The position numbers were made by a program, and so were the translations under genes. Under the pieces are notes generated by a model. It had not been told where the DNA came from. It was given only the letters and a program-made list of their open reading frames with translations, and searched no databases. From a virus (Duplodnaviria > Heunggongvirae > Uroviricota > Caudoviricetes), in the IMG/VR virus record IMGVR_UViG_2639762884_000001: a stretch of 64,000 bases of DNA; one strand, given 5' to 3'. Of the stretch, positions 16,167 through 60,342 are shown one piece after another (within the stretch, counting starts at the first letter, position 1; each line of letters opens with the position of its first letter).

Positions 16167-16186
16167 ATAGGTAAGTGATTACTTAG
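16167..16186. promoter_or_regulatory. class B palindromic motif (ATAGGTAAGTgatTACTTAG)
   Basis: In the divergent intergenic region between the helicase operon and the ParB-like gene. Confidence 0.5.
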
Positions 16187-16884
16187 TGGATTGTAGCAAT
16201 AAAATGGATGTAAAAATCACGATTTTGCAGGTTGATGTTGCCAACCTTCGCCCGAATACCTGGAACACCAATTCGGTTGGTGCGCAGAATTTTGAAAAAC
16301 TGAAAGGTTCTATCGAAAAATTGGGCTTTTTTAAGCCAATTTTGGCTCGTGAACTTGAAGATGGATTTTTTGAAATCCTCGGCGGCGAACATCGCTGGCG
16401 TGCCGCTATTGAGCAAGGAATTTCAACGGTTCCAGTGCTTTCTGTGGGCAAAATTAGCGATGTCGTAGCTAAACAGATGTCACTGGTGGACAACGAGCGA
16501 TACGGTGAAGACGACCAAATCGCATTGCAACGCTTCATTGAAGAAATTCAGTCAGAACTTGACTATCAACTGTCTGAAATCGCCCCGTATGACGACGAAA
16601 TCTCGATGGTTTTAGCAAAAGAGGCGGCAATCGACCTTGAAGCACTGGAGGCGTTGTCTCGTGGTAGTGATGAGCCTGTCGATACCGACAAACGAGAGAA
16701 AACCGAACGTGTGGGGGCGGAACATCAGACCATGCGCTTCAAAGTAACTTTCGATGCGTCAGATCGTGTTGCAGAAACCATAAAAAACATCATCAAAGAG
16801 CAGGCTATTAACACCGGTAATGAAATGGAGAACGCTGGTGAGGCTCTGGTGTGGCTGGTCGACTACTACAAGGAGCGTATGTAA
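16186..16884 (+). CDS. ParB/Srx-like N-terminal domain protein 1
   Basis: ILGGEHRWRAA matches the ParB/sulfiredoxin GxxRxxA box; acidic C-terminal half. Track start is GTG; ATG at 16204 is an alternative. Confidence 0.7.
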   Translation: MDCSNKMDVKITILQVDVANLRPNTWNTNSVGAQNFEKLKGSIEKLGFFKPILARELEDGFFEILGGEHRWRAAIEQGISTVPVLSVGKISDVVAKQMSLVDNERYGEDDQIALQRFIEEIQSELDYQLSEIAPYDDEISMVLAKEAAIDLEALEALSRGSDEPVDTDKREKTERVGAEHQTMRFKVTFDASDRVAETIKNIIKEQAINTGNEMENAGEALVWLVDYYKERM

Positions 16885-17552
16885 TGACCAAAAAGTTTGA
16901 AATCGTATATCGCGACCCGGCAGATCTTATTCCCTATGAGATGAATGCCAAAAAGCATGATGAACAGCAGATCCGAGATCTAGCCGCAGCCATTAAAAAG
17001 CGCGGATTTGACCAGCCAATTACGGTCGATAAGAACGACGTAATTATTACTGGCCACGGCCGCCGTGAGGCTGCAATTTTTGCTGGACTTGAGCGCGTAC
17101 CGGTTATTGTTCGCGATGATCTCAGTGATGACGAGGTTCGTGCGAAGCGCCTTGAAGATAACCGACTTGCCAGCATTGATTACGATGCAATTAAGCTACA
17201 GAAAGAGCTTGAGTCGCTTGTTCTGGACGATATCGAGGTTTTCGGCTTTGAAGAGCGTGAGTTGAATGTTCTCGTTGGCAGCATGACAGAAGAAATGGAC
17301 ACCGACTCGCTAGTTATCGATCTTGGCGAAGAAACTAAACGACAGAAGGATGAACACACCGAGATCAGTCGTGAAGTTGCAGCGGAAGAAGTACGTGTTG
17401 TCGACGTATTGGGCTTTAAAACGCTTCCTGCTGGCTCTGCCATTGTTGTTGGTGATTTGCTTGCCCACATGGAAGAAATGACGGGAGAAAGCGGGGTAGA
17501 CGCATTTGTGGCATATGCGGAGAAGATCTCTTCCGGGGAGATGGCTGCATGA
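16884..17552 (+). CDS. ParB/Srx-like N-terminal domain protein 2
   Basis: IITGHGRREAA ParB box; AAGGAG RBS; start overlaps the preceding stop (TAATG). Confidence 0.7.
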   Translation: MTKKFEIVYRDPADLIPYEMNAKKHDEQQIRDLAAAIKKRGFDQPITVDKNDVIITGHGRREAAIFAGLERVPVIVRDDLSDDEVRAKRLEDNRLASIDYDAIKLQKELESLVLDDIEVFGFEERELNVLVGSMTEEMDTDSLVIDLGEETKRQKDEHTEISREVAAEEVRVVDVLGFKTLPAGSAIVVGDLLAHMEEMTGESGVDAFVAYAEKISSGEMAA

Positions 17553-18214
17553 GCAAATACATCATCAACGTATCGTTTCAGACACGCGTAAATAAAACCA
17601 CGCGCACGTTGGAAATCGCTGAGTCGTTCGGGCTTGGCCTGGACGAAAAAGAGTGGACGCTTTACGACAATCTGGAGCTGGAAGTGAAGCAGGGCGATGT
17701 GGTGTACATCACCGGCCAATCCGGTTCCGGCAAATCCGTTGTGCTGCGCGAGTTGCAACGACAGATGAAGGATGAAGGGCTGTCTGTAGCCTCCATCGAT
17801 GATTTTACCTTCGATAATGAGGTTAACGTCATCGATCAGTTGGGCAAAACGACCAGCGATGCGCTTGGGTTGTTATCTATGGCTGGTCTGAACGATGCAT
17901 ATCTGTTTGTTCGCAAGCCTTCTGAAATGTCAGACGGTCAGAAATATCGTCTCAAGATTGCCAAACTGATTGAGTCAGGCGCTAAAGTGTGGGCTGCTGA
18001 CGAGTTCGGTGCTGTTCTAGACCGTGTAACCGCTCAGGTTGTGGCATCTAACCTCCAGCGTGCCGCTCGAAAGGTTGGTGCGACGGTAATGGTGGCGACG
18101 ACTCACGAAGACCTGAAGAACGCGCTGCGCCCGGATATGCAGATCACCAAGCACTACAAAGAACGCGTGAAGGTGGAATATCACAATGGTAGTCATGATG
18201 AGGTTCATTTATGA
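17549..18214 (+). CDS. soluble ABC-type ATPase
   Basis: Walker A GQSGSGKS, signature-like MSDGQKYRL, Walker B VWAADEF, H-loop ATTHE; 221 aa with no transmembrane domain. Confidence 0.8.
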   Translation: MSKYIINVSFQTRVNKTTRTLEIAESFGLGLDEKEWTLYDNLELEVKQGDVVYITGQSGSGKSVVLRELQRQMKDEGLSVASIDDFTFDNEVNVIDQLGKTTSDALGLLSMAGLNDAYLFVRKPSEMSDGQKYRLKIAKLIESGAKVWAADEFGAVLDRVTAQVVASNLQRAARKVGATVMVATTHEDLKNALRPDMQITKHYKERVKVEYHNGSHDEVHL

Positions 18215-19101
18215 CGGACATCATCATTAAACGCTACCGCCCTGAAGAGTTTCCGCGTCATCTGGACTTTCTGGAGCGAATGACTGTCACAAAGGGAACT
18301 GTAGAGGACTGGCACGCTCTTAAGTCGCTTCACTACAAAACAGACGGCAAACCTTTCGCGCCAACTTACTATCGCTGCGAACTTGATGACCGTCTGGTGG
18401 GCGTCGTGGTTATGGCTTACCCGAAACTACTGCTGGCACCTCGCCACCGCATGTTTCCTAAGTTGAAACCAACCACTAATACCACCGTGGCTAACCAGTA
18501 CTGGGGTCGGTACGTGAATAACAACTTTGCGGTGATCAGTCGCTCAGTTGTGGATACTCAGTATCGTGGCGTAGGCGTCTCTTATCGAATGATTAACCTG
18601 GTTAGCAGGATGCATGACCGGCCAATCATTGAGATCCAGTCCTCGATGAGCAAATACAATCCCTTCGCCATGAAAGCAGGGTTTAAGTTCATCCGCCCTG
18701 AGCGACCGAAGAGCTATGAAAGTGCACTGCGTGTATTCCAGCGCCATTTCCGTTCCGACCCGGGTGATAACGAGGCGATCGTCAAAGAGTTGTTCGCAAT
18801 GAGCGAGTCTCGTCGTCGCCGTGCACTGCGTGATCTGGTGGCGGACTACCACAAGAACAGTTCCCTGGCAAAAGCTGGGCGGAATCGTGGCACGACGATT
18901 CAGGACATTGCCGACAGTCTGGTGGACGAGGCCAGCATTGTGAAGCTGCTCAAGGACATTCACAACCTGAGCTTTACGTCTCCGTTGTATGGTGTGTACC
19001 GAAACCCTGACTTTGGCCGTCGACTGCCTGACACGCTGCCACTGCTGGCATTCGACAAACAACCTTTGGATAAACCGTTAGAAATTGCTTTACCGGCATA
19101 A
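18211..19101 (+). CDS. GNAT-fold acetyltransferase-like protein
   Basis: Motif A QYRGVGVS (Q/R-x-x-G-x-G) and downstream NPFAMKAGFKF; roughly 120-aa C-terminal extension. Confidence 0.55.
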   Translation: MTDIIIKRYRPEEFPRHLDFLERMTVTKGTVEDWHALKSLHYKTDGKPFAPTYYRCELDDRLVGVVVMAYPKLLLAPRHRMFPKLKPTTNTTVANQYWGRYVNNNFAVISRSVVDTQYRGVGVSYRMINLVSRMHDRPIIEIQSSMSKYNPFAMKAGFKFIRPERPKSYESALRVFQRHFRSDPGDNEAIVKELFAMSESRRRRALRDLVADYHKNSSLAKAGRNRGTTIQDIADSLVDEASIVKLLKDIHNLSFTSPLYGVYRNPDFGRRLPDTLPLLAFDKQPLDKPLEIALPA

Positions 19102-19110
19102 GGATTTGCC

Positions 19111-19377
19111 ATGACGTTAACCGATAAACAAAAGGACATCATCAAAACGCTCAATCTCGGTTATGAGCGAGGTCATCTACTTGACCTGGACGAATTGCTT
19201 GAAGTTTTGCCGTACAAGACAACCAAGCAAAGTATCCAGTTCTCAATTCGCGCTCTGATAAAAAAGGGGCTGGTGGAGAAAGGGCATACGCGCCAACGCA
19301 GTGACAATCGCTATCACCGCCGAACTCTTGGGTTAACCACTTTAGGTCGAGCCAAAGCGAAGTTACTGGTGATGTAA
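19111..19377 (+). CDS. small winged-helix-like DNA-binding protein (putative regulator)
   Basis: 88 aa; helix-turn-helix-like segment TKQSIQFSIRALIKKGLVEK followed by a basic tail. Confidence 0.45.
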   Translation: MTLTDKQKDIIKTLNLGYERGHLLDLDELLEVLPYKTTKQSIQFSIRALIKKGLVEKGHTRQRSDNRYHRRTLGLTTLGRAKAKLLVM

Positions 19378-19400
19378 TCGGTCTGGGAGCTTATTTAAAG

Positions 19401-19457
19401 ACCTGCATCTGTATATATAAATAATAAGTAACTTATTAAATATATACGGAAGCAGGC
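19401..19457. repeat. 57-bp imperfect palindromic element, copy 1
   Basis: acctgcatctgtatatataaataataagtaacttattaaatatatacggaagcaggc; core ATAAGT-A-ACTTAT; near-identical copy at 51400-51455. Confidence 0.8.
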
Positions 19458-19492
19458 TTCGTAAGACATGCCAGACCTAATTAAACACCCCA

Positions 19493-19533
19493 GAAAACAA
19501 GTTGGTTAGCAGATGCAGTAAACAAGTTGTTTT
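19493..19533. promoter_or_regulatory. two class A half/full sites upstream of the small terminase gene
   Basis: gaaaacaagttgg (19493-19505) and gtaaacaagttgtttt (19518-19533). Confidence 0.5.
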
Positions 19534-19572
19534 AGAGCGCATGGACGCGCTCTGTGTGTTTTAGAGGGATCT

Positions 19573-20205
19573 ATGACGGTCGAAAAAGACGAGGTAAAAA
19601 CTCGCCTGACACCAGCGGAGTGGGCCGAAGCTGAAGCCAAATGGACGTCAGGCGAATATACACTCTCAAAGCTGGAGGAAGAGTACGGCATTCGTCGTGA
19701 AACACTCTCCAGACATTTCAAAAAGCGAGGATTAGAGAAAGGCGCGGACTCTGTTGGGAAGATGGTTCGTGAGTCTCTTAAATCTGACGCAGAGCTTCGC
19801 GCTAAAGCCCGTGCGGAAAAGATAGAAGAACGTCGTACACGTTATGACGGCTGGGCGTATGCGTTGGGGCAGATGGTGATGGTCGAAGTCACTACGGCCA
19901 AACGTGAGGGGAAGCCTTTAGGGGCGATTGAGGATTCTCTCAAGAGCTTACAGAGAGCCAGTAATACCCTTGCAAAATGCTTTGAAGTTTCGTCCAAAGC
20001 ATTGGGCATGGATCATGCGGAAAATGACGAGGAAGAAATTCCGAACCTGGTATTTGGTGAGCTTACGCCTTCCCAGGTGGCGAAATTACGTCAGGAAGAC
20101 GACGAGCCTGAAATCATCGATGACGAATTGCTTGAGACGTTGGAAGAAGAAGCTCTAAGCGAATTTGATGCGACAGATGATGGAAGTGAAGGGGAGGACG
20201 AATAA
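19573..20205 (+). CDS. terminase small subunit (putative)
   Basis: HTH-like N-terminus, basic middle, acidic C-terminus; directly precedes and overlaps the large terminase start. Confidence 0.65.
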   Translation: MTVEKDEVKTRLTPAEWAEAEAKWTSGEYTLSKLEEEYGIRRETLSRHFKKRGLEKGADSVGKMVRESLKSDAELRAKARAEKIEERRTRYDGWAYALGQMVMVEVTTAKREGKPLGAIEDSLKSLQRASNTLAKCFEVSSKALGMDHAENDEEEIPNLVFGELTPSQVAKLRQEDDEPEIIDDELLETLEEEALSEFDATDDGSEGEDE

Positions 20206-21461
20206 TGGCAATCCCGTCCTCGCTCAGTCTTGTGCAACTGCATTCTGGACAGATGAAAGTCTTCCAGTCTCCGCATCGATTTAAAGTTGTTTGTGCTGGT
20301 CGACGCTGGGGAAAATCCCGGTTGTCGATCTCCACTATTATTCGTGCGGCGGCAAAGGAAAAAAAGCAAAGGGTCTGGTATGTCGCTCCTACTTACCAGA
20401 TGGCTCGCCAGATTTTGTGGGACGATCTACAGGAAGTTCTGCCTCGTAAGTGGGTTAGGAAAAAGAACGACACCACGATGACAATCGTGTTGAAGAACGG
20501 TTCGGAGATCGCCCTCAAAGGTGCTGATAAGCCTGACACTCTACGCGGCGTAGCGTTGCATTTTGTAGTGCTTGATGAATTTCAGGATATGAAGGCTGAC
20601 ACCTGGTACAAGGTGTTACGACCTACTCTTTCATCGACACGCGGCGGTGCACTGATCATTGGTACGCCAAAAGGCTTCTCGGAATTTCACAAACTGTGGA
20701 CTATAGGCCAGAACGTAGAGCTGCAAAGAAAGGGACAGTGGAAGAGCTGGCAGTTTGTAACTGCCGATTCTCCGTTTGTGCCTACGGCGGAAATTGAAGC
20801 TGCTAAGAACGATATGGACCCGAAATCGTTCGCTCAGGAGTACCTGGCGAGCTTTGAGAACATGTCCGGGCGCGTTTACTACCCGTTCGATCGTAACGTG
20901 CATGTAAAACCGCTTCAGTTCAACCCTCGGTTGCCTATATGGGTAGGGCAGGACTTCAACATTGACCCGATGTCTTCCGTAATTTTGCAACCTCAGCCAA
21001 ATGGTGAGCTATGGGCAATTGATGAATTGGTGCTCTTTTCCTCTAACACGGCAGAGGTTTGTGATGAGCTTGAGAGACGCTTCTGGCGCTGGAAATCACA
21101 GATAACGGTATTTCCAGATCCGGCAGGTGCTTATCGCCAACATGCTCGCGGGGAGTCTGACGTCGACATATTCAAAGAGAAGGGATTCTTACGTGTCGAT
21201 TATTCGAAAAAGCACCCGCCAATTGCGGATCGTGTTAATGCTGTTAACCGAATGCTGATGACCGCATCTGGAGATATCCGGCTGTATATCGATCCGAAGT
21301 GCAAGCATTTGATTGATTCACTGGAAAAAGTCATCTACAAGCCTGGAACACGAGATATGGATAAGACAGGTGGCATTGAGCATAGTGCAGACGCATTGGG
21401 CTATCCAGTACATCGTAGGTATCCAGTCAAAAACCGTGTTATTCTTGGTGGTTCTCGATAG
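20205..21461 (+). CDS. terminase large subunit
   Basis: Walker A CAGRRWGKS, Walker B VLDEFQD, C-terminal nuclease-type acidic motifs (FPDPAG). Confidence 0.85.
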   Translation: MAIPSSLSLVQLHSGQMKVFQSPHRFKVVCAGRRWGKSRLSISTIIRAAAKEKKQRVWYVAPTYQMARQILWDDLQEVLPRKWVRKKNDTTMTIVLKNGSEIALKGADKPDTLRGVALHFVVLDEFQDMKADTWYKVLRPTLSSTRGGALIIGTPKGFSEFHKLWTIGQNVELQRKGQWKSWQFVTADSPFVPTAEIEAAKNDMDPKSFAQEYLASFENMSGRVYYPFDRNVHVKPLQFNPRLPIWVGQDFNIDPMSSVILQPQPNGELWAIDELVLFSSNTAEVCDELERRFWRWKSQITVFPDPAGAYRQHARGESDVDIFKEKGFLRVDYSKKHPPIADRVNAVNRMLMTASGDIRLYIDPKCKHLIDSLEKVIYKPGTRDMDKTGGIEHSADALGYPVHRRYPVKNRVILGGSR

Positions 21462-21478
21462 GTAAGTAATTATCTAAG
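21458..21478. promoter_or_regulatory. class B motif (ATAGGTAAGTAATTATCTAAG)
   Basis: Intergenic, 10 nt upstream of the portal ATG. Confidence 0.5.
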
Positions 21479-21487
21479 GTTATTCAA

Positions 21488-23062
21488 ATGGAATTGAACG
21501 ACAAACAAATTAAGGATCTGGTGGCGCGACGCCACCCGGAATACGAAAAGAAAAAAGAACATTGGGACTTCCTCGCCAGCACTTACGCTGGCGGGCGTGG
21601 TTGGTTTACAGACAATATCTTTCGTTACTTTAAAGAGGGAGATCAGGAGTTTAAGGAGCGAGTTGAACGTGCTTATCGCTTCAACCACACTCGTGAGGTG
21701 GTAAACCTCATCAACAAATATCTCTTTAAAGAAGACATTCATAGAAATATCGAAGAGGCACCAGAGCAGATCCGCAATTTCTGGAAACGTGCGACTCGCC
21801 AGAATGCCTCTATTGACTCATTTATGGCCGCTATTGATTTGCAGTCGTCTATTTACGGTCGCATATGGGTTGTTGTCGATAGCACGATGAGTGGTGATGT
21901 TGAGTCAGTAGCTGACGAGAAAAAGAAAGATGCTCGCGCCTACGCCTACTGGATTTCACCTCAGCAAATGCTGGATGTGGCATGGGACGACGACGGGAAT
22001 ATGTTATGGGCGTTAATTGTGGAAGTCGCTCGCGATGACGCAGATCCTTTTACTTCTACAGGTCAGGAATACCAACGTTATCGTCTGTGGACACAAAACG
22101 AGTGGTATCTGTTCCGTGAGGAAGTGAAGAAGGGCGCTGGTGGAGCAGGTCGCCGTCAGGCAAAAGTTATTTTAGAGGATAGCGGTGAGCATAATCTCGG
22201 CGTAGTTCCTGTGTTTCCTGTTGATTGTATTGGAGAAAGTGAATCACCGTATTTCAGCCCATCGTTGATCGATGATATCGCTTATCTTGATCGTGCGGTT
22301 GCAAACTATCTGTCAAACCTTGATGCCATTATTCAGGATCAGACATTTAGCCAGTTGGCTATACCAGTACAGTCGCTTTTACCTGGTGATGAAAACCACA
22401 CTAAAGTGCTTGAAATGGGCACAAAGCGAGTATTCACCTACGATTCTGAAGGTGGAAACCAGCCGTTTTATCTGTCACCAGACCCGAAACAAGCTCAGAT
22501 GATCATCACTACGATTAAGACGGTGATTAACGAAATCTACCATTCAGTTGGTGTAGCTGGTGAGCGAACGAAGCAGGACAACGCACAGGGAATCGATAAC
22601 TCATCTGGTGCCGCAAAAATGTATGACTTCCAGCGTGTAAATAGCTTGCTTGTCACAAAAGCAGAGCGTCTGGAAAGGGCTGAACGCCAAATCATGCTAC
22701 TGGTTGCGAAATGGATGGGGGTAGATCTGGACGAAGACCACTCTTTAATTGCGTATCCAGAAAGTTTCGATATTCGTGGCCTTACTGATGAATTTTCTGT
22801 TGCCGAGAAACTGTCATTACTTCAGGCACCGGACTCTGTACGTCGTCACCAGATGGAAATGCTTATTGAGAAGATTTTCCCGAACATTACTGAGGCGATG
22901 AAAAAGGAATTTGATAAAGATCTCTTGAATTTTCCTCCAAAAAATGATCTAAATACCCTTGAAAATAAGTCAGTACTTACTTATGATCGTGGTGCAGCCC
23001 AAGAAAGCGGGCAAGATCAACCCCGAGGGAATGGGGACTCATCTACTCAAGAGAACGAGTGA
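21488..23062 (+). CDS. portal protein
   Basis: 524-aa protein directly after the large terminase; size, position and acidic C-terminus typical of portals. Confidence 0.75.
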   Translation: MELNDKQIKDLVARRHPEYEKKKEHWDFLASTYAGGRGWFTDNIFRYFKEGDQEFKERVERAYRFNHTREVVNLINKYLFKEDIHRNIEEAPEQIRNFWKRATRQNASIDSFMAAIDLQSSIYGRIWVVVDSTMSGDVESVADEKKKDARAYAYWISPQQMLDVAWDDDGNMLWALIVEVARDDADPFTSTGQEYQRYRLWTQNEWYLFREEVKKGAGGAGRRQAKVILEDSGEHNLGVVPVFPVDCIGESESPYFSPSLIDDIAYLDRAVANYLSNLDAIIQDQTFSQLAIPVQSLLPGDENHTKVLEMGTKRVFTYDSEGGNQPFYLSPDPKQAQMIITTIKTVINEIYHSVGVAGERTKQDNAQGIDNSSGAAKMYDFQRVNSLLVTKAERLERAERQIMLLVAKWMGVDLDEDHSLIAYPESFDIRGLTDEFSVAEKLSLLQAPDSVRRHQMEMLIEKIFPNITEAMKKEFDKDLLNFPPKNDLNTLENKSVLTYDRGAAQESGQDQPRGNGDSSTQENE

Positions 23063-23083
23063 TAAGTAACAAAAGGAATTTTT

Positions 23084-23971
23084 ATGAATCTGTGGCAAAT
23101 GCTTTTGGCCCGTCGTGGTCTGATGGATGTCGCTGAAGCGCATGAGCGTGGAGGCGCTGGCGGTGTAGCTGCTGATAATGAGCAGAGTACACAAGATCCT
23201 GACAAACAGGGTGAACAAAAAGAGCAGCCGAAGGGCGATGACGAATACGCTGGCATGACTCAGGAAGAGTTACTGGCCGAACTTCGTAAAACCAAGAAAG
23301 CTGGTGCTGAACTGCTGAAGGAGAACATGAAGCGCAAAGAGAAAGAGCGCACATTGGCCGATCAGCTTGCTCAGTACGGTGATATCGATCCGGCTCGTGC
23401 TCGCCAGCTTTTAGAAGCTGAACAGGCCGCAGAAAACGCACGTCGTGAGGCGGAGCAAGCTGAACTGGAGCGTCGTGGTGAGTTCGATGCTGTTAAAAAA
23501 CAGATGATCGAAGCACACCAGGCAGAGCTGGCACAGCGTGACGAACGTTATGCAGCACTGGAAAGTGAAAACGCATCACTGAAATCTCAATTAGTCGAGA
23601 TGACCGTGGGCGCTTCCTTCAGTAACTCTCTCTTCCTACGTGACAAAGTTCTGATGACCCCGGCAAAAGCCCGCGTGATCTACGGTTCTCATTTTGAAGT
23701 GGGTGAAGACGGTAGCGTAGTGGGTTATGACAAACCGGCAGGTCACAAAGAACGAGCTGTTCTGGTTGACGGTGAAGGTAAGCCGTTGCCGTTTGAATCC
23801 GCGATTGAACGCATTGTGCGGGCAGATCCGGAAGCTGACGCATTGATGCGTAGCGAAGCCAAGCAGGGTGTAGGCTCACATTCCAAATCGACCTACACAA
23901 TATCCCAACCGAAGAACAAGTCGACTATGGATAAGTTGGCCTCCGGTCTGGGGAAAATTGGACTTAAGTAA
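23084..23971 (+). CDS. head scaffolding protein (putative)
   Basis: Charged, Ala/Glu/Gln-rich predicted coiled coil between portal and capsid genes. Confidence 0.6.
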   Translation: MNLWQMLLARRGLMDVAEAHERGGAGGVAADNEQSTQDPDKQGEQKEQPKGDDEYAGMTQEELLAELRKTKKAGAELLKENMKRKEKERTLADQLAQYGDIDPARARQLLEAEQAAENARREAEQAELERRGEFDAVKKQMIEAHQAELAQRDERYAALESENASLKSQLVEMTVGASFSNSLFLRDKVLMTPAKARVIYGSHFEVGEDGSVVGYDKPAGHKERAVLVDGEGKPLPFESAIERIVRADPEADALMRSEAKQGVGSHSKSTYTISQPKNKSTMDKLASGLGKIGLK

Positions 23972-23996
23972 CATCTAAATCAAAGGGAATTGATAG

Positions 23997-24872
23997 ATGC
24001 CATTACTGCGTGAAGAAGCTGAAAAGCTGTCTAACAACGAACTTGAACAGGGTGTGATCGAAACTATCATCGATCGCGATGACCTGTTTGCCATCCTGCC
24101 TTTTATGAAAATTAATTCAAAGGCATATCTGTACAACCGTGAAAAAACGCTGAGTGAAGCTACCTTCATCGACGTTAACGACACCATCCCTGAAGGTGCA
24201 GCAACCTTCGAAGAATGCGTTGCGAAACTGCGTATTCTGGCTGGTGACGTAGACGTTGATAAATTCCTGGCGACCACTATGGCCGACACCAACAACCAGT
24301 TGGCTATTCAGGTTCGTCAGAAAGTTAAAGGTCTGGCTCGTGCGTTCCGTCGCAACCTGATTTTGGGTGACTCCAGCTCCAACAACAAGGCGTTTGACGG
24401 CATTCCACGCCTGATGCACGCAGATCAGAAGATCGATATCGCCGGTGCATCTATGACTTTCTCTATGTTCGACGAACTGGTCGATGCGGTGAAAGATCTT
24501 GGTGCTGACTGCATCATGATGCGTTCAGAGCACCTGCGTGCTTATCGTGCGCTGCTGCGTACAGTAAACGTAGGTCCGTCTGAAATCATGATGGAGAACT
24601 TTGGTCGTCCGATGCTGTGTCATAACGGCGTTCCGTTCATCATCAACGACTTCATCCCGACCGATGCTGGCAAAGCAAGCATCTACTGCCTGCATCTGTC
24701 AGAAGAGAACGGCGTTACTGGTCTGTATGGCGGCGATAACGCAGGTATCGTTGTTGAAAACATTGGTACTGTACAGAACAAAGACGCAGTACGTACCCGT
24801 GTGAAGTGGTACTGCTCTCTGGCGAATAAGCATGATAAGGCTATCGCTGCACTGACCAATGTAAAAATTTAA
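23997..24872 (+). CDS. major capsid protein (putative)
   Basis: 291-aa ORF after the scaffold, followed by a strong terminator; call is by position and size. Confidence 0.65.
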   Translation: MPLLREEAEKLSNNELEQGVIETIIDRDDLFAILPFMKINSKAYLYNREKTLSEATFIDVNDTIPEGAATFEECVAKLRILAGDVDVDKFLATTMADTNNQLAIQVRQKVKGLARAFRRNLILGDSSSNNKAFDGIPRLMHADQKIDIAGASMTFSMFDELVDAVKDLGADCIMMRSEHLRAYRALLRTVNVGPSEIMMENFGRPMLCHNGVPFIINDFIPTDAGKASIYCLHLSEENGVTGLYGGDNAGIVVENIGTVQNKDAVRTRVKWYCSLANKHDKAIAALTNVKI

Positions 24873-24883
24873 TCAGTGTAGTA

Positions 24884-24899
24884 GATAAGTAGTTATCTA
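24884..24899. promoter_or_regulatory. class B-related palindrome (AGATAAGTAGTTATCT)
   Basis: Between the capsid stop and its terminator. Confidence 0.4.
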
Positions 24900-24906
24900 T
24901 GTTAAA

Positions 24907-24932
24907 GGGTGGGCTATACGCCCACCCTTTTT
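24907..24932 (+). terminator. Rho-independent terminator
   Basis: GGGTGGGC-TATAC-GCCCACCC followed by TTTTT. Confidence 0.85.
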
Positions 24933-24945
24933 GTAGGAGCGAGAA

Positions 24946-25866: not shown

Positions 25867-25910
25867 TCAATATTGGGCGGCGAAAGCCGCCCATGTAGAG
25901 AGAAAGCGTT

Positions 25911-26345
25911 ATGAAACCAGCAAAAATTGTTTTATTAGAACCGCAATTTTCCGGTTATTCGGGAATGCTGTGTGGCGTTCAGTTCGAGAACGGGGTATCC
26001 GTAGCGGAGTTGCCTTTTATCGATCAGCAGAGGATTTGTGCTTCAATGCGAGCGTCAACAGTAGAGGGCAAAAATGTTTCTCCGTCTGCCGCATACAGTG
26101 ATCGTGGTGAATTGACAGCAGACCTGATTACCGAGCCAGCAGCGCCTGACATTGTGCCAATGAAACGTGGGACACCAGATGAACCGGCCAAACAGATCCA
26201 GACTTTCACACGAGAAGAGCTGGAGTCAATTGCAGACAACGAAGGTATTGCCGGTCTACGTGTGATTGGTAATCAGGTTGGTGTCAAAGCGAAAGGAATT
26301 GTCGAAATGATTGACGGCATCCTGAAAGCACAAGGCGGTGAGTAA
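25911..26345 (+). CDS. hypothetical virion morphogenesis protein
   Basis: ORF within the head/neck gene block; function by position only. Confidence 0.4.
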   Translation: MKPAKIVLLEPQFSGYSGMLCGVQFENGVSVAELPFIDQQRICASMRASTVEGKNVSPSAAYSDRGELTADLITEPAAPDIVPMKRGTPDEPAKQIQTFTREELESIADNEGIAGLRVIGNQVGVKAKGIVEMIDGILKAQGGE

Positions 26346-27178: not shown

Positions 27179-27257
27179 CGCCAGTCGCATTATTTACTTT
27201 TGGTCTAAAGGGTTTTTGGTCAGTAATGAGAGCGACCGACAACAACAGGGAGAGAGC

Positions 27258-28066: not shown

Positions 28067-28067
28067 T

Positions 28068-51399: not shown

Positions 51400-51455
51400 G
51401 CCTGTTTCTGTATATAAATAATAAGTAACTTATTAAATATATACGGAAGCAGGTC
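51400..51455. repeat. 57-bp imperfect palindromic element, copy 2
   Basis: gcctgtttctgtatataaataataagtaacttattaaatatatacggaagcaggtc; copy of 19401-19457. Confidence 0.8.
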
Positions 51456-51536: not shown

Positions 51537-51557
51537 GATAAGTAAGTAACTACCTAC
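51537..51557. promoter_or_regulatory. class B motif (GATAAGTAAGTAACTACCTAC)
   Basis: Immediately upstream of 51561. Confidence 0.45.
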
Positions 51558-51560
51558 CAG

Positions 51561-53775: not shown

Positions 53776-54957
53776 ATGAGCCTTTATGTTATATCAACAT
53801 TTAGGTTGGTCACAATATTGCCTGTTAAAAGTGGAATTATCGTGAGCGAGCTGAAAGAGCTAATTACCGAATTAGATTTTGAACAATGGTTGGACACTGA
53901 AGGTATCGTTTATCGACGTGGAGGCGTGAGTGCTCGCGGTCGTGAAGTGAATATCAAGGAGTGTCCGGTATGCGGCAGCTCCAACTGGAAGGTATATTTC
54001 AATCTGACCAGTGGCGTCGGCAAATGCTTCGCTGGTGATCATCCCGAAGAGATTCAGTTCAATAAGCTGGTCTTCCTCAAGCACTACAGCGGTAAATCAC
54101 GACGACAGTTCGAGGAATATGTGCAGAACGCTCTTCTTTCCCAGGGGTGGGCACCAAAGAAAGAAGAGATAGTGCTTACAAGCACAGTCGAGTTAGAGGG
54201 ACCACTTGCACTCCCTCGTCATTACGAACTTCCTATAGATGGCCGTCTTCCAGACTATCTGGTTGAACGAAACATATCGCCTGAAATGGCAAAGTATTTT
54301 GACCTACGATACTGCGTCGAAGGCAAGCACGCTTATGTAGATCCGTATACAGATCAGGTAAAAGGACAGATATTCGATATGCGAGTACTGATACCGGTTT
54401 ACGATCTGGATGGGGTAATGAAGACATTTCAGGGACGAGACATTACCGGTACAGCAGACCGCCGCTACCTCTTTCCTATGCAGCTTCCAGCTTCAGGTAA
54501 GTTTCTCTACAACGGCCATAATGCAGTTGGCAAACAGACTGTAGTTGTCTGTGAGGGGGCGTTCGATGTTATGGGAGTTAAACGAGCTATTTTTGACGAA
54601 GAAACATTACGTGATTACGTGGAACCAATAGGAACGTTCGGGATGCATCTATCTGGCAACACCACTCAGGATGCAGAAGATCAGCTGGGCGCGTTCCTGA
54701 CGCTCAAGGCGCGTGGATTACGTAATGTGATCATGATGTGGGATAGTGAAAAGCAAGCTATACGCAACACTATGGCCGCAGCCAGGCGACTCACAAGTAT
54801 TGGTCTTAATGTCAAAGTTGCGTGTTTGGGCGAGGAAGGACTCGACCCCGGCGATGCGACACCGGGGCAGATTATCAAAGCCTACTATTGCGCAAAACCT
54901 TATTCACGACAGCTTGAACTCTTAAGCAAGGTGAAAGGCATTGCAGCACTAGTTTGA
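53776..54957 (+). CDS. DNA primase (zinc-finger plus TOPRIM)
   Basis: CPVCGSSNW...GKCFAGDH zinc ribbon and VVVCEGAFD TOPRIM-like motif; the start is uncertain (track 53704). Confidence 0.75.
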   Translation: MSLYVISTFRLVTILPVKSGIIVSELKELITELDFEQWLDTEGIVYRRGGVSARGREVNIKECPVCGSSNWKVYFNLTSGVGKCFAGDHPEEIQFNKLVFLKHYSGKSRRQFEEYVQNALLSQGWAPKKEEIVLTSTVELEGPLALPRHYELPIDGRLPDYLVERNISPEMAKYFDLRYCVEGKHAYVDPYTDQVKGQIFDMRVLIPVYDLDGVMKTFQGRDITGTADRRYLFPMQLPASGKFLYNGHNAVGKQTVVVCEGAFDVMGVKRAIFDEETLRDYVEPIGTFGMHLSGNTTQDAEDQLGAFLTLKARGLRNVIMMWDSEKQAIRNTMAAARRLTSIGLNVKVACLGEEGLDPGDATPGQIIKAYYCAKPYSRQLELLSKVKGIAALV

Positions 54958-56094
54958 ACCAGTATTAGTCACATACACATTGACCGAAAATGATTTAACT
55001 TCTGTATTGAAGTTGTCAGTCATTACCGCGAGGTAGGCATTCTTGGTATCTCTGAATTGCTTCAGGATGATTTGAACGTTATCGGTGCAAACAAACGAGG
55101 TAGCCAGATTGCCTCCTTTCTCTGAAAAATCCTTCAGGAAGGTGCAGTCAACTTTGCCATCATTAGCGGTGAAGGTAGCATCATCACCCTGCCAGGTAAA
55201 TGTAGCGTTAACGCCCTTATCAATGGATTTAGCAATAAGTCGCTGGGTGGCGGATTTTGTTTTGGCTTTGGAAGCCGGCGCTCGATATTTGCCGCTTTCT
55301 TTCAGTTCTGCAATGTAATCGCAGCCTCTTTTTTCTCCTTTATCGCAAGCAGTCTGATAAAGGTCGGCTGCTTTTTTATAGTCCTTTTTTACACCTTCCC
55401 CATTCTCATACATAATGCCAAGATTGGTTATGGCGTCGGCGTTTCCAAGTTCCGCTGCCTTTTTATACCACTTAACTGCTTCTGCATCATTGCGTTTAAC
55501 GCCTAACCCATCATCGTATAGTATTCCTAATCCTATCATAGCTTCTGAACTGCCTTGGTCTGCCGCCTTTTTGTAATAAGTAAAAGCCTTTTTATAATTC
55601 TTTTTAACGCCTTTACCATATTGGTAATACGCCCCAAGAACTGAAGTTGCTTTAACATACCCGGCATCAGAGGCTAGTTTGAAGTATTTAATGGCGAGTG
55701 CATGATCTACTTTACCAAGCATCCCCTTTTGATAAATAGCACCAAGATTGTTGTAGGCTCTACCTTCACGAGCATCCCCCGCAAGTTTGTAGTACTCAAC
55801 AGCTTTATTTAGGTCTTTATCTACACCCTCGCCAAATGTGTACATAACTCCAAGTGCATAATATGCTACTTTATCTCCCTTTTCTGCAGCTAGATCAATC
55901 CACTTCTTGGCCTCAACTACATCCTTATCAAAACCATTGACACCATCAAAATAATTTGTACCTAACTCACTTTGTGCTGCGGTATCCCCTGCGGTAGCGG
56001 CTTCTATCAGCGTTTGTTTATTGTCTGCGTTAACGAATCCAGAGTTAAAAAGCAAAGTTAATGCCAGCAACGATGAAGATTTTATGTATTTCAT
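54949..56094 (-). CDS. secreted Sel1-like repeat (SLR/TPR-like) protein
   Basis: Signal peptide MKYIKSSSLLALTLLFNSGFVNA; at least eight roughly 36-aa repeats of type A..Y.KAA.QG...A...LG..Y..G.GV.KD. Confidence 0.75.
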   Translation of the reverse strand: MKYIKSSSLLALTLLFNSGFVNADNKQTLIEAATAGDTAAQSELGTNYFDGVNGFDKDVVEAKKWIDLAAEKGDKVAYYALGVMYTFGEGVDKDLNKAVEYYKLAGDAREGRAYNNLGAIYQKGMLGKVDHALAIKYFKLASDAGYVKATSVLGAYYQYGKGVKKNYKKAFTYYKKAADQGSSEAMIGLGILYDDGLGVKRNDAEAVKWYKKAAELGNADAITNLGIMYENGEGVKKDYKKAADLYQTACDKGEKRGCDYIAELKESGKYRAPASKAKTKSATQRLIAKSIDKGVNATFTWQGDDATFTANDGKVDCTFLKDFSEKGGNLATSFVCTDNVQIILKQFRDTKNAYLAVMTDNFNTEVKSFSVNVYVTNTGSN

Positions 56095-56327
56095 GTTTTT
56101 TTTTCTGTTGATATAGGATGAACAGTTTAGACGCGGCAAGCGTCAAGTGTGCGAAAAAGGGTACTTAAATTTAGTTAATATGTCAGCTTTGTTGATTTAG
56201 TTTAAGGTCGGTAAAGTTACTGGGAAACTAATAACCATAAGAAATAGTACGCCATTTAATTATTGTGGCACTGCTCGTGTTTTGATTAACTAATACCTGC
56301 GATAAATATAAATAAAGGGAAGCCAAC

Positions 56328-56804: not shown

Positions 56805-56825
56805 GATAAGTAGATACATACTTAG
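56805..56825. promoter_or_regulatory. class B motif (GATAAGTAGATACATACTTAG)
   Basis: Intergenic, upstream of 56867. Confidence 0.45.
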
Positions 56826-56866
56826 TTTTTTGTAAGAATACTTTCATCTGTTAGCTAGGAGTTGGT

Positions 56867-57675: not shown

Positions 57676-57688
57676 GATAGGTAAGCAC
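57676..57688. promoter_or_regulatory. class B half motif (GATAGGTAAGCAC)
   Basis: Intergenic, upstream of 57711. Confidence 0.35.
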
Positions 57689-57710
57689 AAGATTATTTCT
57701 GGCGGTAATT

Positions 57711-59500: not shown

Positions 59501-59676
59501 TGCTCGGCTGGATGATTGCATTTTTAGCAGTTGGTTTTTTCATAGGTATTGTGGTGATGTCCAGTTGCATCAATGACTACATTAAAAGCGGTGTTATAGA
59601 AAGACGCGGTCGTATTTATCGCATTGTAGAAATAACCAACACCCAGAAGGAGATTAAGGATGATCGTATTAAGTAA
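59497..59676 (+). CDS. small single-pass membrane protein (59 aa)
   Basis: ATG overlapping the ligase stop; hydrophobic N-terminus; paralogous to 59872..60024. Confidence 0.35.
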   Translation: MMLGWMIAFLAVGFFIGIVVMSSCINDYIKSGVIERRGRIYRIVEITNTQKEIKDDRIK

Positions 59677-59875
59677 ACGGGAGAAGGAAACGCTTCATGA
59701 AATCAGTAAGTGGCCGGAGTTCCCTGAGTACTGGAAGCCTAAAACGCGAGCTAAGTTAGAGCGTTTAGGGTTGGTTGCAAACGTTTCTGAAACGTGGTGT
59801 TCGGCCAACTACCAGTTAACTGATAAAGGGAAAGTATTGCTACAGCAATTAGTAGAATCAGGAGTGTTAAAATGA
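59660..59875 (+). CDS. hypothetical protein (71 aa)
   Basis: AAGGAG RBS; overlaps both neighbours by a few codons. Confidence 0.4.
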   Translation: MIVLSKREKETLHEISKWPEFPEYWKPKTRAKLERLGLVANVSETWCSANYQLTDKGKVLLQQLVESGVLK

Positions 59876-60024
59876 TTCCATACATCTCATTAGCTTTTAT
59901 GGGTGGCTTCCTTATCGGCTTCGGCATCTGTCGTGATTTAATTAAGCAGGAACTTAAAACCAAAACACTGTGCATCGGAAAGCGTGTGTATCGGGTAGTT
60001 CATGAAACAAAGGTGAAAAAATGA
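59872..60024 (+). CDS. small single-pass membrane protein (50 aa)
   Basis: AGGAG RBS; shares the transmembrane helix and GKRVYRVVHET tail (compare RRGRIYRIVEIT) with 59497..59676. Confidence 0.35.
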   Translation: MIPYISLAFMGGFLIGFGICRDLIKQELKTKTLCIGKRVYRVVHETKVKK

Positions 60025-60311
60025 GCAATTTAACTTCTTGGGAATGGTGGTTGGCCACCTATTTCTTAGCGGCCGGAGTCGCATTCGCCTTTTACGTAGG
60101 TCAGTTAGTCGTAAAACTGTTGCTGATTAAATTTGCTAGTCATAAACGTATCGATGATGGTCTGTGGCGTCTTGGCACCCTGGTGGAAACTCGCTACGGG
60201 CAACTTAAGGAGAACGAAACCATTACTATCCAGGCGAAACGATTCACTGCCACCATCACAAGAACACCTAGTCGTAGAGTGGCCTTGATCAAAAAAGTCA
60301 CAACCGAATAA
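60021..60311 (+). CDS. small membrane protein (96 aa)
   Basis: ATGA overlap with the upstream gene; hydrophobic N-terminal helix. Confidence 0.45.
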   Translation: MSNLTSWEWWLATYFLAAGVAFAFYVGQLVVKLLLIKFASHKRIDDGLWRLGTLVETRYGQLKENETITIQAKRFTATITRTPSRRVALIKKVTTE

Positions 60312-60320
60312 AAACATCAT

Positions 60321-60342
60321 GATAAGTATTTACTTACTTATC
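60321..60342. promoter_or_regulatory. class B motif (GATAAGTATTTACTTACTTATC)
   Basis: Directly after the 60311 stop, at the start of the structured noncoding region. Confidence 0.45.

Follow-up and report, generated by a model that had tools for sequence, protein, structure and literature searches.

A dispersed 22-bp dyad in an SSU5-like phage-plasmid as a candidate operator of a CI-type repressor

The 64,000-nucleotide stretch of viral DNA analysed here (IMG/VR record IMGVR_UViG_2639762884_000001, hereafter the window) carries a palindrome that recurs in its intergenic spacers, and the question is which protein reads it and with what effect. The initial annotation had placed the palindrome in the structural and late region and had proposed a late promoter or the site of a late activator. 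Judged by sequence identity, the window is an SSU5-like phage-plasmid: the E. coli phage-plasmids CMS-2020a and Cyrano are closest to it (98.5-98.9 % identity), and Salmonella phage SSU5 is 81 % identical.

The dyad and its sites in the window

The motif unit is a 22-bp dyad, (G/A)ATA(G/A)GTAAGT-ACTTAC(C/T)TAT(C/T), in which the central hyphen separates the half-sites. The 14-bp pattern of the initial annotation, TAAGTANNTACTTA, is enriched in the window (four exact matches with 0.00 expected, and 24 matches with at most two mismatches with 1.8 expected), but it covers less than the full unit. When non-overlapping sites scoring above 14 were sought with a symmetric half-site matrix, with block shuffles as the null, 13 were found in the window, compared to 0.24 expected and a maximum of 2 in the shuffles. 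Of these, 12 are intergenic, non-coding DNA being 13.3 % of the window (binomial p = 3.5e-10), and the motif is rare within genes. A phage-specific regulatory DNA motif, as initially suggested, is supported; no description of it was found in the searchable literature.

All 11 sites listed initially are real and were recovered at the coordinates given or a few bases away. The first, GATAGGTAAGT-GATTACTTAGT (16166-16187, score 22.7), lies in the divergent spacer between a UvsW-like helicase gene (minus strand) and the first ParB_N gene (plus strand), with its centre 27 nt from the start codon, and has orthologues in Cyrano (105106) and Klebsiella pJN2-26 (34778). The next, GATAGGTAAGT-AATTATCTAAG (21457-21478, score 23.3), includes the stop codon of TerL as well as the Shine-Dalgarno sequence of the portal gene; it is centred 20 nt from the portal ATG and forms a conservation island in the alignment of the window with SSU5 and Klebsiella. 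An overlooked site in the 3' end of the portal gene, AATAAGTCAGT-ACTTACTTATG (22964-22985), occupies the spacer of a sigma-70-like promoter, TTGAAA (22959) - 17 nt - TATGAT (22987), upstream of the scaffold-like and major capsid protein (MCP) genes, and is kept in SSU5 (3543) and Klebsiella (42092). The site that had been placed at 24884 has its true centre 4 nt further to the left; it is AGTAGATAAGT-AGTTATCTATG, also written GTAGATAAGT-AGTTATCTAT (24880-24901), 18 nt past the MCP stop codon and directly followed by an intrinsic terminator (24907-24931, GGGTGGGC-TATAC-GCCCACCC-TTTTT). The order of stop codon, site and terminator is the same in SSU5 and Klebsiella, and a hairpin follows the corresponding site in the Acinetobacter and Sinorhizobium elements. 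Between the tail-completion and tube genes, AATCGGTAAGT-ATATACTTACT (28455-28476) overlaps the spacer and -10 of TTGAAT (28443) - 18 nt - TATACT (28472). The supposed tandem at 34948-34980, which separates the M-like from the L-like minor tail gene, is one site, GATAAGTAAGT-ACTAATTTACT (34960-34981, score 24.4), with a stray TAAGTA before it. Two more sites, AATAGGTAAGT-ATTTACTTAGT (41879-41900, score 24.0) and GATAGGTAAGT-ATGTACCTATA (46100-46121, score 21.5), separate the J-like tail tip from the tail fibre gene and the tail fibre from the holin gene, respectively.

The described placement in short spacers before portal, tube, L-like, fibre and lysis genes was confirmed, but the motif is not restricted to the structural and late region. 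The sites beginning at 51537, 56805 and 57676 precede the replication module, that at 60321 precedes a tRNA cluster, and in complete relatives sites also occur between recombination and nucleotide-metabolism genes. GATAAGTAAGT-AACTACCTACC (51537-51558), before hyp31, the DnaB-like helicase and the primase, starts 12 nt past the -10 of a conserved sigma-70-like promoter, TTCCAA (51497) - 17 nt - TATCAT (51525), and covers approximately +5 to +26. GATAAGTAGAT-ACATACTTAGT (56805-56826, score 20.1) lies upstream of the hyp34 gene, which comes after the primase gene in relatives. What had been taken for a full site at 57676-57688 is a single good half-site, GATAGGTAAGC, with a degenerate right half (57676-57697; left 13.5, right 1.5), centred 12 nt upstream of the start of the hyp35/ligase operon. 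The best site in the window, GATAAGTATTT-ACTTACTTATC (60321-60342, score 27.6), includes the -35-like TTTACT (60329) of a conserved promoter with TAAGAT (60352-60357) as its -10, upstream of the tRNAs (61087-61330). The degenerate AATAGGTAATA-ACACACCTATC upstream of the glutaredoxin gene (63183-63204, score 16.3), which keeps only the outer arms, ATAGGT...ACCTAT, had also been missed. The accessory region holds the weak partial GTATTGTAAGT-ACATACTTATG (9110-9131, score 11.5), which matches the 14-bp pattern exactly and lacks the outer arm on one side.

Conservation and symmetry of the site

Complete relatives contain 20-32 sites each, including sites in replication, recombination and nucleotide-metabolism operons. 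Early- or middle-type operons preceded by the dyad, in these relatives and in the window itself, include those of helicase-primase, ligase, uvsY/gp32, recA, sbcCD, nrdAB, thyX and dam. Cyrano has 20 sites scoring above 19 (0 expected), of which 19 are intergenic, and all are beside plus-strand lytic genes. None of the Cyrano sites above 14 lies beside minus-strand genes or beside plus-strand genes reported to be expressed in the LF82 lysogen (PMC9928086), the exceptions to this avoidance being a half-site 170 nt before CYRAN_81 and a sub-threshold copy of the core before CYRAN_45. Position is conserved among related phages, as orthologous junctions in SSU5 and Klebsiella pJN2-26 carry the dyad as conserved islands in otherwise diverged spacers. 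The geometry of the motif is preserved in elements from Salmonella, Klebsiella, Pectobacterium (a variant motif), Acinetobacter (32 variant sites) and Sinorhizobium (19 sites in 49.5 kb of a plasmid with 60 % GC).

The left half and the mirror image of the right half have almost the same base frequencies, and this extends to the flanks. At the variable pair 5/18 the combinations A-T, A-C, G-T and G-C occur 13:13:13:13, arm pairing counts are equal for the two strands (463 and 452), and no covariation was found between the arms, the half-sites varying independently. Of 63 sites, 41 have a TAnnnT hexamer at the downstream end and 38 have one at the mirror position upstream; together with the mirror symmetry this near equality means that the motif has no direction. 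Mirror-identical half-sites that vary independently indicate, on sequence grounds, a site for a dimeric DNA-binding protein and argue against both an RNA hairpin and a directional promoter.

Candidate binding proteins

Our preferred reading, to which we give roughly an even chance, is that the sites are dispersed operators or roadblock sites for a dimeric regulator of the element, the most likely candidate being its CI-type XRE-HTH repressor. The repressor gene, CYRAN_45 in Cyrano, is expected by synteny beside the integrase gene, about 1 kb past the window's right edge. Upstream of it, in both Cyrano and Klebsiella, the core of the motif is the sole palindrome with arms that reach 6 bp or more. 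In Cyrano and S. Typhi pHCM2 this core directly follows a promoter reading into the repressor gene (TTTACA - 16 nt - TAATAT), and a site or half-site is found upstream of the homologous gene in Sinorhizobium and a second Klebsiella lineage. The repressor's recognition helix appears to track the motif variants in a comparison of six elements: it is GYKNANNLSLIKSGK in both Cyrano and pHCM2, whose repressors are 66 % identical overall and whose motif is the same, KNQN in Sinorhizobium, with the motif core unchanged, SSHN in Pectobacterium and NQN, without the lysine, in Acinetobacter, both of which have variant motifs. We infer the identity of the binding protein from this covariation and from position, and likewise that binding would repress. 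Expression of the repressor in the lysogen is 10x the local background (PMC9928086). The FljA-family protein of the element (13261-13863, minus strand) was also considered as a binder and was rejected, the Acinetobacter element having the motif and no detectable FljA homologue.

Several observations speak against the operator reading. The copy before the repressor gene is incomplete, lacking the outer ATA on one side, and falls below the scan threshold (6.3 in Cyrano, 12.3 in Klebsiella); moreover, a lytic-cycle regulator could bind the repressor promoter equally well, as lambda Cro does. Late structural operons also carry sites, and most temperate phages do not repress these directly. In five of eight recognisable promoters the -10 is at the right end of the site (+18 to +21), which could be read as a preferred geometry, and the Acinetobacter and Sinorhizobium relatives have a sigma-factor gene, so that part of the lytic programme would be expressed there from phage-directed promoters. 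Finally, with a shared motif every one of the E. coli, Salmonella and Klebsiella elements would have to be homoimmune, an uncommon situation for immunity repressors.

The main rival, which we regard as unlikely, is that the dyad is bound in the lytic cycle by a phage-encoded activator of promoters lacking a -35 before every lytic operon, the copy at the repressor gene serving to shut the repressor off. A possible binder is the 88-aa winged-helix-like protein (phrog_900) encoded just upstream of TerS (19111-19377, plus strand), acting in the manner of P1 Lpa; in P1, a late promoter consists of a -10 hexamer together with an inverted repeat at around -22. Most sites indeed have no good -35, the best sigma-70 match most often has its -10 at +18 to +21, and the downstream TAnnnT would suit such a role. 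The structural region has fewer sigma-70-like promoters than expected (10 compared to 22.5), and three of the eight on the plus strand there overlap sites. The phrog_900 gene is conserved and syntenic in all lineages examined, and phage-specific promoter elements typically show deep motif conservation. However, TAnnnT is about as frequent on the mirrored side, and the same dyad precedes early- and middle-type operons. An activator would normally require a fixed geometry, whereas the register of the dyad to recognisable sigma-70-like promoters varies: it may cover the -35, fill the spacer or follow +1 closely (at +5 in one case), with an overall range of -17 to +31. In Cyrano, 20 intergenic sites face a plus-strand gene, and seven of these are centred only 11-27 nt from the start codon; there, and where the TerL stop codon lies inside the site, no room is left for a promoter and leader, a -10 at the downstream end of the site leaving no leader at all. 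Intrinsic terminators directly follow two conserved sites, several overlapped promoters have a good -35 with a 17-nt spacer and so need no activator, and a core copy lies just past the promoter of the repressor gene. The recognition helix of phrog_900, moreover, is unchanged in Pectobacterium despite the different inner motif and differs in Sinorhizobium despite the same motif.

It is improbable, in our estimate, that the sites recruit a DNA-organising or silencing protein instead of a classical transcription factor, whether a ParB_N protein in the manner of KorB with its OB sites or, in enterobacteria, SlmA, the nucleoid-occlusion factor of the host. KorB has 12 palindromic sites across RK2, and the first site is directly followed by the genes of two ParB_N proteins (16204-16884 and 16851-17552), which all lineages examined have kept; they are candidates by gene position alone. 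Strict intergenic placement suggests a connection of the sites with transcription. The Pectobacterium host should possess SlmA, but a critical SlmA position is altered in the Pectobacterium motif; conversely, the motif is kept in the elements of Acinetobacter and Sinorhizobium, hosts that to our knowledge lack SlmA. The best conserved positions, T3 (63 of 63 sites) and A4 (59 of 63), lie outside the SlmA 12-mer. High-affinity SlmA sites follow the rule GT(R)AG(Y)-(R)CT(Y)AC, with G, T, A and G required at positions 1, 2, 4 and 5, any purine at 3 and any pyrimidine at 6, and the inner 12 bp of our consensus, GTAAGT-ACTTAC, comply with it (PMC3020112); the E. coli SlmA-binding sequence is GTGAGTACTCAC. 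Perfect 12-mers of this type, read off the site lists, number four in Klebsiella pJN2-26 and three in SSU5, but the 13 window sites include no perfect match, and E. coli SlmA sites are reported outside promoter regions (PMC3020112).

The idea that the palindromes act as transcript hairpins in termination, processing or translational control is very improbable and already largely refuted: the sites do lie in transcribed spacers, some abutting ribosome-binding sites, and the element encodes a FljA-family protein (PF03614, E = 1.7e-82) that might bind them, Salmonella FljA being described as acting on fliC mRNA, but A-C mismatches are as frequent as G-U pairs, predicted folds are weak (-1.4 to -8.3 kcal/mol), inconsistent in register and mostly within the shuffle range, the stem is not G+C-rich, the U tract is absent, the distance from site to start codon ranges from 11 to 139 nt, and no Rfam family matched.

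Proposed dispersed operators and the lysogenic state

As dispersed operators, the sites would by analogy resemble the P1 C1 regulon and the stoperators of mycobacteriophage L5. P1 is likewise a plasmid-prophage, whose master repressor C1 controls many operators around the genome and not one immunity region. The C1 operators are asymmetric 17-mers that act on early functions and on lpa, the gene of the late activator, the late operons having a separate promoter class, whereas here one symmetric site precedes early-type and late operons alike. The CI operators of lambda, P22 and 434 share with our sites the dyad symmetry, recognition by a dimer of HTH domains (here the predicted mode) and a copy at the repressor's own promoter. 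Lambdoid operators, however, are clustered at OL and OR beside the immunity genes and diverge quickly between phages, whereas here 20-32 copies are spread over ~100 kb and the core is kept from gamma- to alphaproteobacterial elements. In IncP plasmids KorB and KorA provide coordinated silencing of many operons, with a palindromic operator occurring about 12 times in intergenic regions; operator sequence and length differ, and the genes concerned here are phage lytic genes.

With L5 and cluster A phages the repressor gp71 binds a short site with more than 20 copies across the prophage genome, located in promoter regions and short intergenic spaces of early and late operons and proposed to halt initiation and elongation, respectively (PMC9283540). 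A single site dispersed over early and late operons is common to both systems. The L5 sites are asymmetric 13-mers, functional in a single orientation and bound by a monomer with two DNA-binding domains (PMC9283540), whereas those described here are 22-bp perfect dyads without orientation, the candidate is a small XRE-HTH protein unrelated to gp71, and the elements are plasmid-prophages of Proteobacteria.

We anticipate that, while the element persists as a plasmid (lysogenic state), the dyad at nearly every lytic-operon junction would be bound by the repressor. A dyad that overlaps a promoter (at the -35, in the spacer or at +1 to +26) would block initiation, and a dyad without a promoter would act as a roadblock to read-through from plasmid-maintenance genes transcribed in the lysogen. 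The core copy just past the repressor gene's own promoter would allow autoregulation. The CI-type repressor was found in 865 plasmids and in 9 of 13 SSU5-like phage records; among the 13 it is absent from both SSU5 records, the 84-kb MK422451 and a 4.6-kb fragment record. The integrase gene is also missing from SSU5, which is in this way similar to D29, a lytic relative of L5 that has lost the repressor and is described as derived by deletion from a temperate parent (PMC5712189). If the repressor were lost or inactivated, all lytic modules would be predicted to be released.

The 22-bp dyad and its genomic placement

Between positions 20000 and 44000 the window shares 98.5% identity with Escherichia phage CMS-2020a and 98.9% with phage Cyrano, the plasmid-prophage of E. 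coli LF82; identity is lower with PhiR41_1 (~92%), Salmonella phage SSU5 (81%) and Klebsiella phage-plasmids (78%). The gene map was obtained by placing the Cyrano proteins on the window. An accessory region and a minus-strand gene block (1-16.1 kb) precede a plus-strand array at 16.2-47.6 kb, which contains two ParB_N genes, a small winged-helix gene and the genes for TerS, TerL, portal, capsid, tail, fibre and lysis. The replication module (hyp31, helicase, primase, ligase) spans 51.6-60.3 kb, the parA operon lies between it and the array, and three tRNAs are found at 61087-61330. The two ParB_N-domain proteins, together with an ABC-type ATPase and an ATPase/acetyltransferase-like protein, are products of the operon at 16204-19101, which has a divergent UvsW-like helicase gene on one side and the small winged-helix gene on the other. 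This operon is present in all lineages from Enterobacterales to Sinorhizobium and is distinct from the parA partition locus at 49134-50161. ORFs without a Cyrano counterpart (12949-13257, 47838-48958, 50222-51295, 54949-56139 and 61830-63050) mark variable cargo slots of the element, and the one at 54949-56139 is a minus-strand Sel1-repeat gene inserted between the primase and hyp34 genes. Homologues of the portal protein occur in 966 PLSDB plasmids, among them S. Typhi pHCM2 and ~100-kb Y. pestis plasmids such as pMT1. Antibiotic-resistance genes are reported from members of the group (PMC9600943).

A symmetric half-site matrix, iterated on the complete Cyrano genome, yielded a 22-bp dyad, (G/A)ATA(G/A)GTAAGT|ACTTAC(C/T)TAT(C/T), with the family consensus GATAGGTAAGTACTTACCTATC, and A/T-rich flanks carry the dyad symmetry out to ~30 bp. 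The window contains 13 sites scoring >14, compared to 0.24 in shuffled sequences. The initial annotation had described a palindrome family of the 14-bp pattern TAAGTA-NN-TACTTA, which is indeed enriched (4 exact copies against 0 expected, 24 with at most two mismatches against 1.8 expected). The family is thus real, but its unit is the 22-bp dyad. All sites listed at that stage are present, with corrections: the centre of 24880-24901 was moved by 4 nt, 57676 is only a half-site, the supposed tandem is a single site, and two sites, 22964-22985 (inside the portal gene) and 63183-63204, had been overlooked. Equal frequency in coding DNA, which had been named as an outcome that would refute the initial reading, is not what is seen: 12 of the 13 sites are non-coding, although non-coding DNA makes up 13.3% of the window (p = 3.5e-10).

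Site numbers are similarly high elsewhere, with 20-24 in Cyrano, 22 in SSU5, 21 in Klebsiella and 32 in Acinetobacter. A scan of the complete Cyrano genome gave 20 sites scoring >19 (none in shuffles), of which 19 are intergenic. The initial annotation had described the family in the structural and late region, and sites do precede the genes for portal, scaffold/capsid, tube, L, fibre and holin, but they are not confined to these. Other sites precede hyp31/helicase, ligase, sbcD, nrdA, thyX, dam and the ParB_N operon, follow primase, recA and RNase H, or separate uvsY from gp32, and replication, recombination and nucleotide-metabolism genes are among those they adjoin. They are dispersed over the whole genome, not clustered in one immunity region. 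In Cyrano the site centre is 11-139 nt from the next start codon and the site 6-171 nt from the previous stop codon; one site contains the TerL stop codon.

The genes adjoining Cyrano sites are all on the plus (lytic) strand. Genes expressed in the LF82 lysogen comprise the TA systems, the parA operon and CYRAN_40, 43, 45, 99, 102, 109 and 117 (PMC9928086). In the Cyrano scan no scored site adjoined minus-strand genes or lysogen-expressed plus-strand genes, with two exceptions, a half-site 170 nt before CYRAN_81 and a sub-threshold copy of the core before CYRAN_45.

The position of the sites is conserved in relatives, which had been proposed as a check. Orthologous junctions in SSU5 and Klebsiella pJN2-26 carry the same dyad, several times as a perfect 22-bp palindrome, and in spacer alignments the dyads form conserved islands beside ribosome-binding sites and terminators. 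Four more distant members were examined. Acinetobacter pCFSAN093706 has 32 sites with the half-sites TTATTAGTAAGC and GCTTACTAATAT, and Sinorhizobium pLM21S1 (60% G+C) has 19 sites in 49.5 kb with the half-sites TGTAAGTAAGT and ACTTACTTACA and invariant TAAGTAA. Pectobacterium Drgb1 has the variant TAnGTAT...ATACnTA, and a second Klebsiella lineage has GATAAGTAA(A/G)(T/C). All four retain the 22-bp geometry as well as T3, G6, T7 and A8 in each half. Retention of an A+T-rich dyad in a plasmid of 60% G+C indicates a many-site regulatory code strongly frozen in evolution.

Relation of the sites to promoters and terminators

The most likely explanation of the sites is that they are dispersed operators and roadblocks for a CI-type repressor, to which we give an even chance. 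In the plasmid state, repressor dimers would sit on the dyads and block initiation where these overlap promoters, while dyads elsewhere would stop read-through, for example from the constitutive parA operon into the replication module at 51537. The repressor would autoregulate its own gene, and once it left the sites every lytic module would become accessible.

The packaging, head and tail region (16000-35999) contains 10 sigma-70-like matches, under half of the 22.5 +/- 4.6 found in shuffles, and three of the eight plus-strand sigma-70-like promoters of 16-36 kb overlap sites. Some sites overlap such promoters and others have no promoter nearby, the register of the best match varying from -17 to +31. 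At the conserved promoters that can be recognised, the site lies in the spacer of 22959 TTGAAA - 17 nt - TATGAT 22987, over the spacer and -10 of 28443 TTGAAT - 18 nt - TATACT 28472, over the -35 of 60329 TTTACT - 17 nt - TAAGAT 60357 (before the tRNAs), and just past the start at 51497 TTCCAA - 17 nt - TATCAT 51525, where it begins 12 nt later.

The initial annotation found the palindromes consistent with a phage-specific late promoter or activator site. The distance to the -10 element is not fixed, as the range of registers shows, and the sites have no built-in direction: in 63 sites from Cyrano, SSU5 and Klebsiella pJN2-26, aligned along the direction of transcription, 41 carry a -10-like TAnnnT hexamer on the downstream side and 38 carry one at the mirrored place upstream. 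Neither are the sites restricted to late (structural, lysis) operons. We consider a role as activator sites or lytic promoters rather unlikely; sites at any register, even without a promoter, are better fitted by a repressor or roadblock than by an activator.

TTG-like hexamers become more frequent 11-17 nt before the sites, specifically on the plus strand and in all lineages. This candidate directional -35 signal was discounted, since the TGA stop codons of upstream genes can account for it. A phage sigma factor or RNA polymerase reading the site was likewise rejected: phmmer and a two-sequence profile detected no sigma-like gene in Cyrano, and a perfect dyad is not what a sigma factor reads. 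A small sigma-factor-like protein is encoded in the Acinetobacter (8507-9172) and Sinorhizobium (6449-7090) elements, between the MoxR-like ATPase gene and dnaE, and its gene is followed by one for a Cys-rich protein; no sigma-like gene was detectable in the enterobacterial elements, at the MoxR-dnaE position or elsewhere.

Two conserved sites, after the capsid gene and between ruvC and nrdA, are directly followed by an intrinsic terminator. The order stop codon, dyad, terminator after the major capsid gene (window 24870-24931) is kept in SSU5 and Klebsiella, and enteric members repeat it between ruvC and nrdA (Cyrano 67882-67940). In Acinetobacter and Sinorhizobium, too, the capsid stop codon is followed by the site and then by a hairpin.

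Palindromes of other kinds were also observed. A long element of 53-55 bp, CCTG(C/T)(A/T)TCTGTATATA(TA)AATAATAAGTAACTTATTAAATATATACGGAAGCAGG, with the octamer TATAAATA in each copy, occurs twice in the window, just upstream of TerS (~19402-19456) and upstream of the replication module (~51401-51453), and a third copy follows dam in Cyrano, SSU5 and Klebsiella. Pectobacterium has TATAAATA-containing elements at the TerS and replication-module positions, and Sinorhizobium has a long palindrome with a motif-like centre upstream of TerS. These long palindromes may serve as the actual promoters of the operons, as terminators working in both directions or as signals for replication or packaging. Outside the dyad family there are four further near-perfect palindromes, at 16-40 (ACTATCACTTA-TT-TAAGTGATATT), at 11146-11168 (halves CGTAATCACAT and ATGTGATTAAG), with 14-bp arms at 61937-71 (GTCAAAATATGCCT-TATATA-AGGCATATTTTGAC) and with 13-bp arms at 63585-63618, near the presumed integrase end. 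One of these four may be the 'class A' element of the initial annotation.

Candidate binding proteins

Five candidate binders were compared: an FljA-family protein, the 88-aa winged-helix-like phrog_900, the pair of ParB_N proteins, host SlmA and a CI-type XRE-HTH protein. The comparison is suggestive of the last, encoded beside the integrase (CYRAN_45 in Cyrano), as the candidate with most support. CYRAN_45 is expressed in the LF82 lysogen (PMC9928086). The protein was found in 865 plasmids. Of 13 SSU5-like phage records, 9 have it; the four without it are the two of SSU5, MK422451 (84 kb) and a fragment of 4.6 kb. In Cyrano and Klebsiella the region before its gene contains a single palindrome with arms of at least 6 bp, the motif core TGGTAAGTnCTTACCGATAT, which in Cyrano and pHCM2 comes immediately after TTTACA - 16 nt - TAATAT oriented towards the gene. 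The homologous genes of Sinorhizobium and of the second Klebsiella lineage, too, have a site or half-site upstream. Helix 3 is GYKNANNLSLIKSGK in both Cyrano and pHCM2 at an overall identity of 66%, and KNxN is kept in Sinorhizobium, where the motif is the same. The helix is altered where the motif varies (SSHN in Pectobacterium; NQN, with the lysine missing, in Acinetobacter), a covariation seen across six elements only. A match to a CI-like protein on a Thauera plasmid belongs to a conjugative plasmid and is not relevant.

A Pfam scan of the CI-type protein found no S24 domain, so induction by DNA damage would have to bypass repressor self-cleavage. Ciprofloxacin is reported to induce Cyrano (PMC9928086). 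The window contains a canonical LexA box, TACTGTATGCATATACAGTA, at 1528-1547, 19 nt upstream of an S24-peptidase (UmuD/LexA-like) gene (1566-1955), which would place at least one gene of the element under direct SOS control.

SSU5 is without a block of ~3.7 kb at ~42600-42760, corresponding to Cyrano 39300-43100. The block, partly present in Klebsiella, holds glutaredoxin, integrase, the CI-type repressor and the following small genes. SSU5 thus has the appearance of a temperate phage-plasmid that lost its repressor by deletion, much like mycobacteriophage D29, which is described as having arisen by deletion from a temperate parent (PMC5712189).

The FljA-family protein (13261-13863, minus strand; PF03614, E = 1.7e-82, 'repressor of phase-1 flagellin') has a weak Hfq/Sm-like match in its C-terminal half. 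Of the 13 SSU5-like phage records searched, 12 encode it (65-99% identity), and it is kept in all enteric members. A possible likeness to the fliC leader was given no weight. Attractive by its repressor annotation and enteric conservation, this protein is nevertheless an unlikely binder: no homologue is detectable in the motif-bearing Acinetobacter element, and it is not among the genes expressed in the LF82 lysogen (PMC9928086). The gene for phrog_900 (19111-19377, plus strand) is syntenic in every lineage examined, but Pectobacterium combines an unchanged putative recognition helix with a differing motif, and Sinorhizobium a changed helix with an unchanged motif.

An architectural role, with the sites bound by a ParB-like protein or by SlmA, we regard as improbable. 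The two ParB_N proteins are tied to the sites by gene position alone. The high-affinity rule for SlmA is GT(R)AG(Y)(R)CT(Y)AC (PMC3020112). Consensus positions 6-17, GTAAGT-ACTTAC, satisfy this rule, and perfect SlmA-type 12-mers (GTAAGTACTTAC) were read, for example, at 14620, 40579 and 44025 in Klebsiella pJN2-26 and likewise at a few SSU5 sites. None of the 13 window sites, however, fits the rule on both halves, the most invariant bases, T3 and A4, fall outside the 12-mer, and the Pectobacterium variant alters a critical A. As far as we know, the Acinetobacter and Sinorhizobium hosts have no SlmA, and the motif is nonetheless present in their elements. Host SlmA was rejected as primary binder on these grounds.

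Symmetry of the sites and comparison with known repressor systems

In the alignment of 63 sites the left half and the mirrored right half have near-equal base counts at every position, ten flanking positions included. At the only strongly variable pair, 5/18, the combinations A-T, A-C, G-T and G-C each occur 13 times. With G-U allowed, pairing counts are the same for the two transcripts, 463 of 590 for the plus strand and 452 of 590 for the minus strand. The predicted RNA hairpins (-1.4 to -8.3 kcal/mol) are weak, inconsistent in register and mostly within the range of shuffles; Rfam gave no family match, no compensatory changes between the arms were detected among the aligned sites, and these lack the G+C-rich stem and U tract of a terminator. 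The absence of covariation, the equal pairing on both strands and the weak folds indicate that the halves are selected independently for sequence, not for pairing. Independent mirror halves are what a symmetric protein dimer bound to double-stranded DNA leaves behind. An RNA-level role of the palindromes as hairpin, terminator or translational operator, to which the variable distance to the start codon is a further objection, is very improbable.

The closest precedent for dispersed operators bound by a CI-type repressor is the operator/stoperator system of mycobacteriophage L5, in which one site likewise occurs 20 or more times per prophage genome, in promoter regions and short intergenic spaces (PMC9283540). 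In L5 a monomer binds asymmetric sites that depend on orientation (PMC9283540), whereas the sites described here are mirror-symmetric with half-sites varying independently, as for a dimer. Dyad symmetry and a copy at the repressor promoter are shared with lambdoid CI operators, as would be the predicted binding by an HTH dimer, but those operators are clustered in one immunity region and the present sites are genome-wide. Further analogies are the dispersed C1 operators of P1 and the KorA/KorB regulon of IncP plasmids.

The many-site prophage repressor regulon is a known kind of system; its symmetric 22-bp version, in a very widespread family of Gram-negative phage-plasmids and conserved in two proteobacterial classes, appears to be new. 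The searchable literature yielded no description of the motif or of SSU5-like/pHCM2 regulation, and in the literature searched we found no account of how SSU5-like elements silence ~80 kb of lytic genes.

We see only a slim chance for a broader proposal, a symmetric Gram-negative stoperator counterpart in which one repressor dimer would serve ~20-30 junctions with a code shared from Enterobacterales to Rhizobiales, combined with a double use by SlmA. If it were true, pHCM2, the ~100-kb Y. pestis plasmids and hundreds of E. coli and Klebsiella plasmids would be mutually immune. In enterobacteria the sites would double as high-affinity SlmA-binding sequences, and lytic amplification would feed nucleoid occlusion and block division.

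SSU5-like phage-plasmids are very common. The 22-bp code and the candidate repressor offer a predicted regulon for them, make cross-genus immunity directly testable, would explain why SSU5 acts as a lytic phage, and may provide a handle to induce or cure these plasmids.
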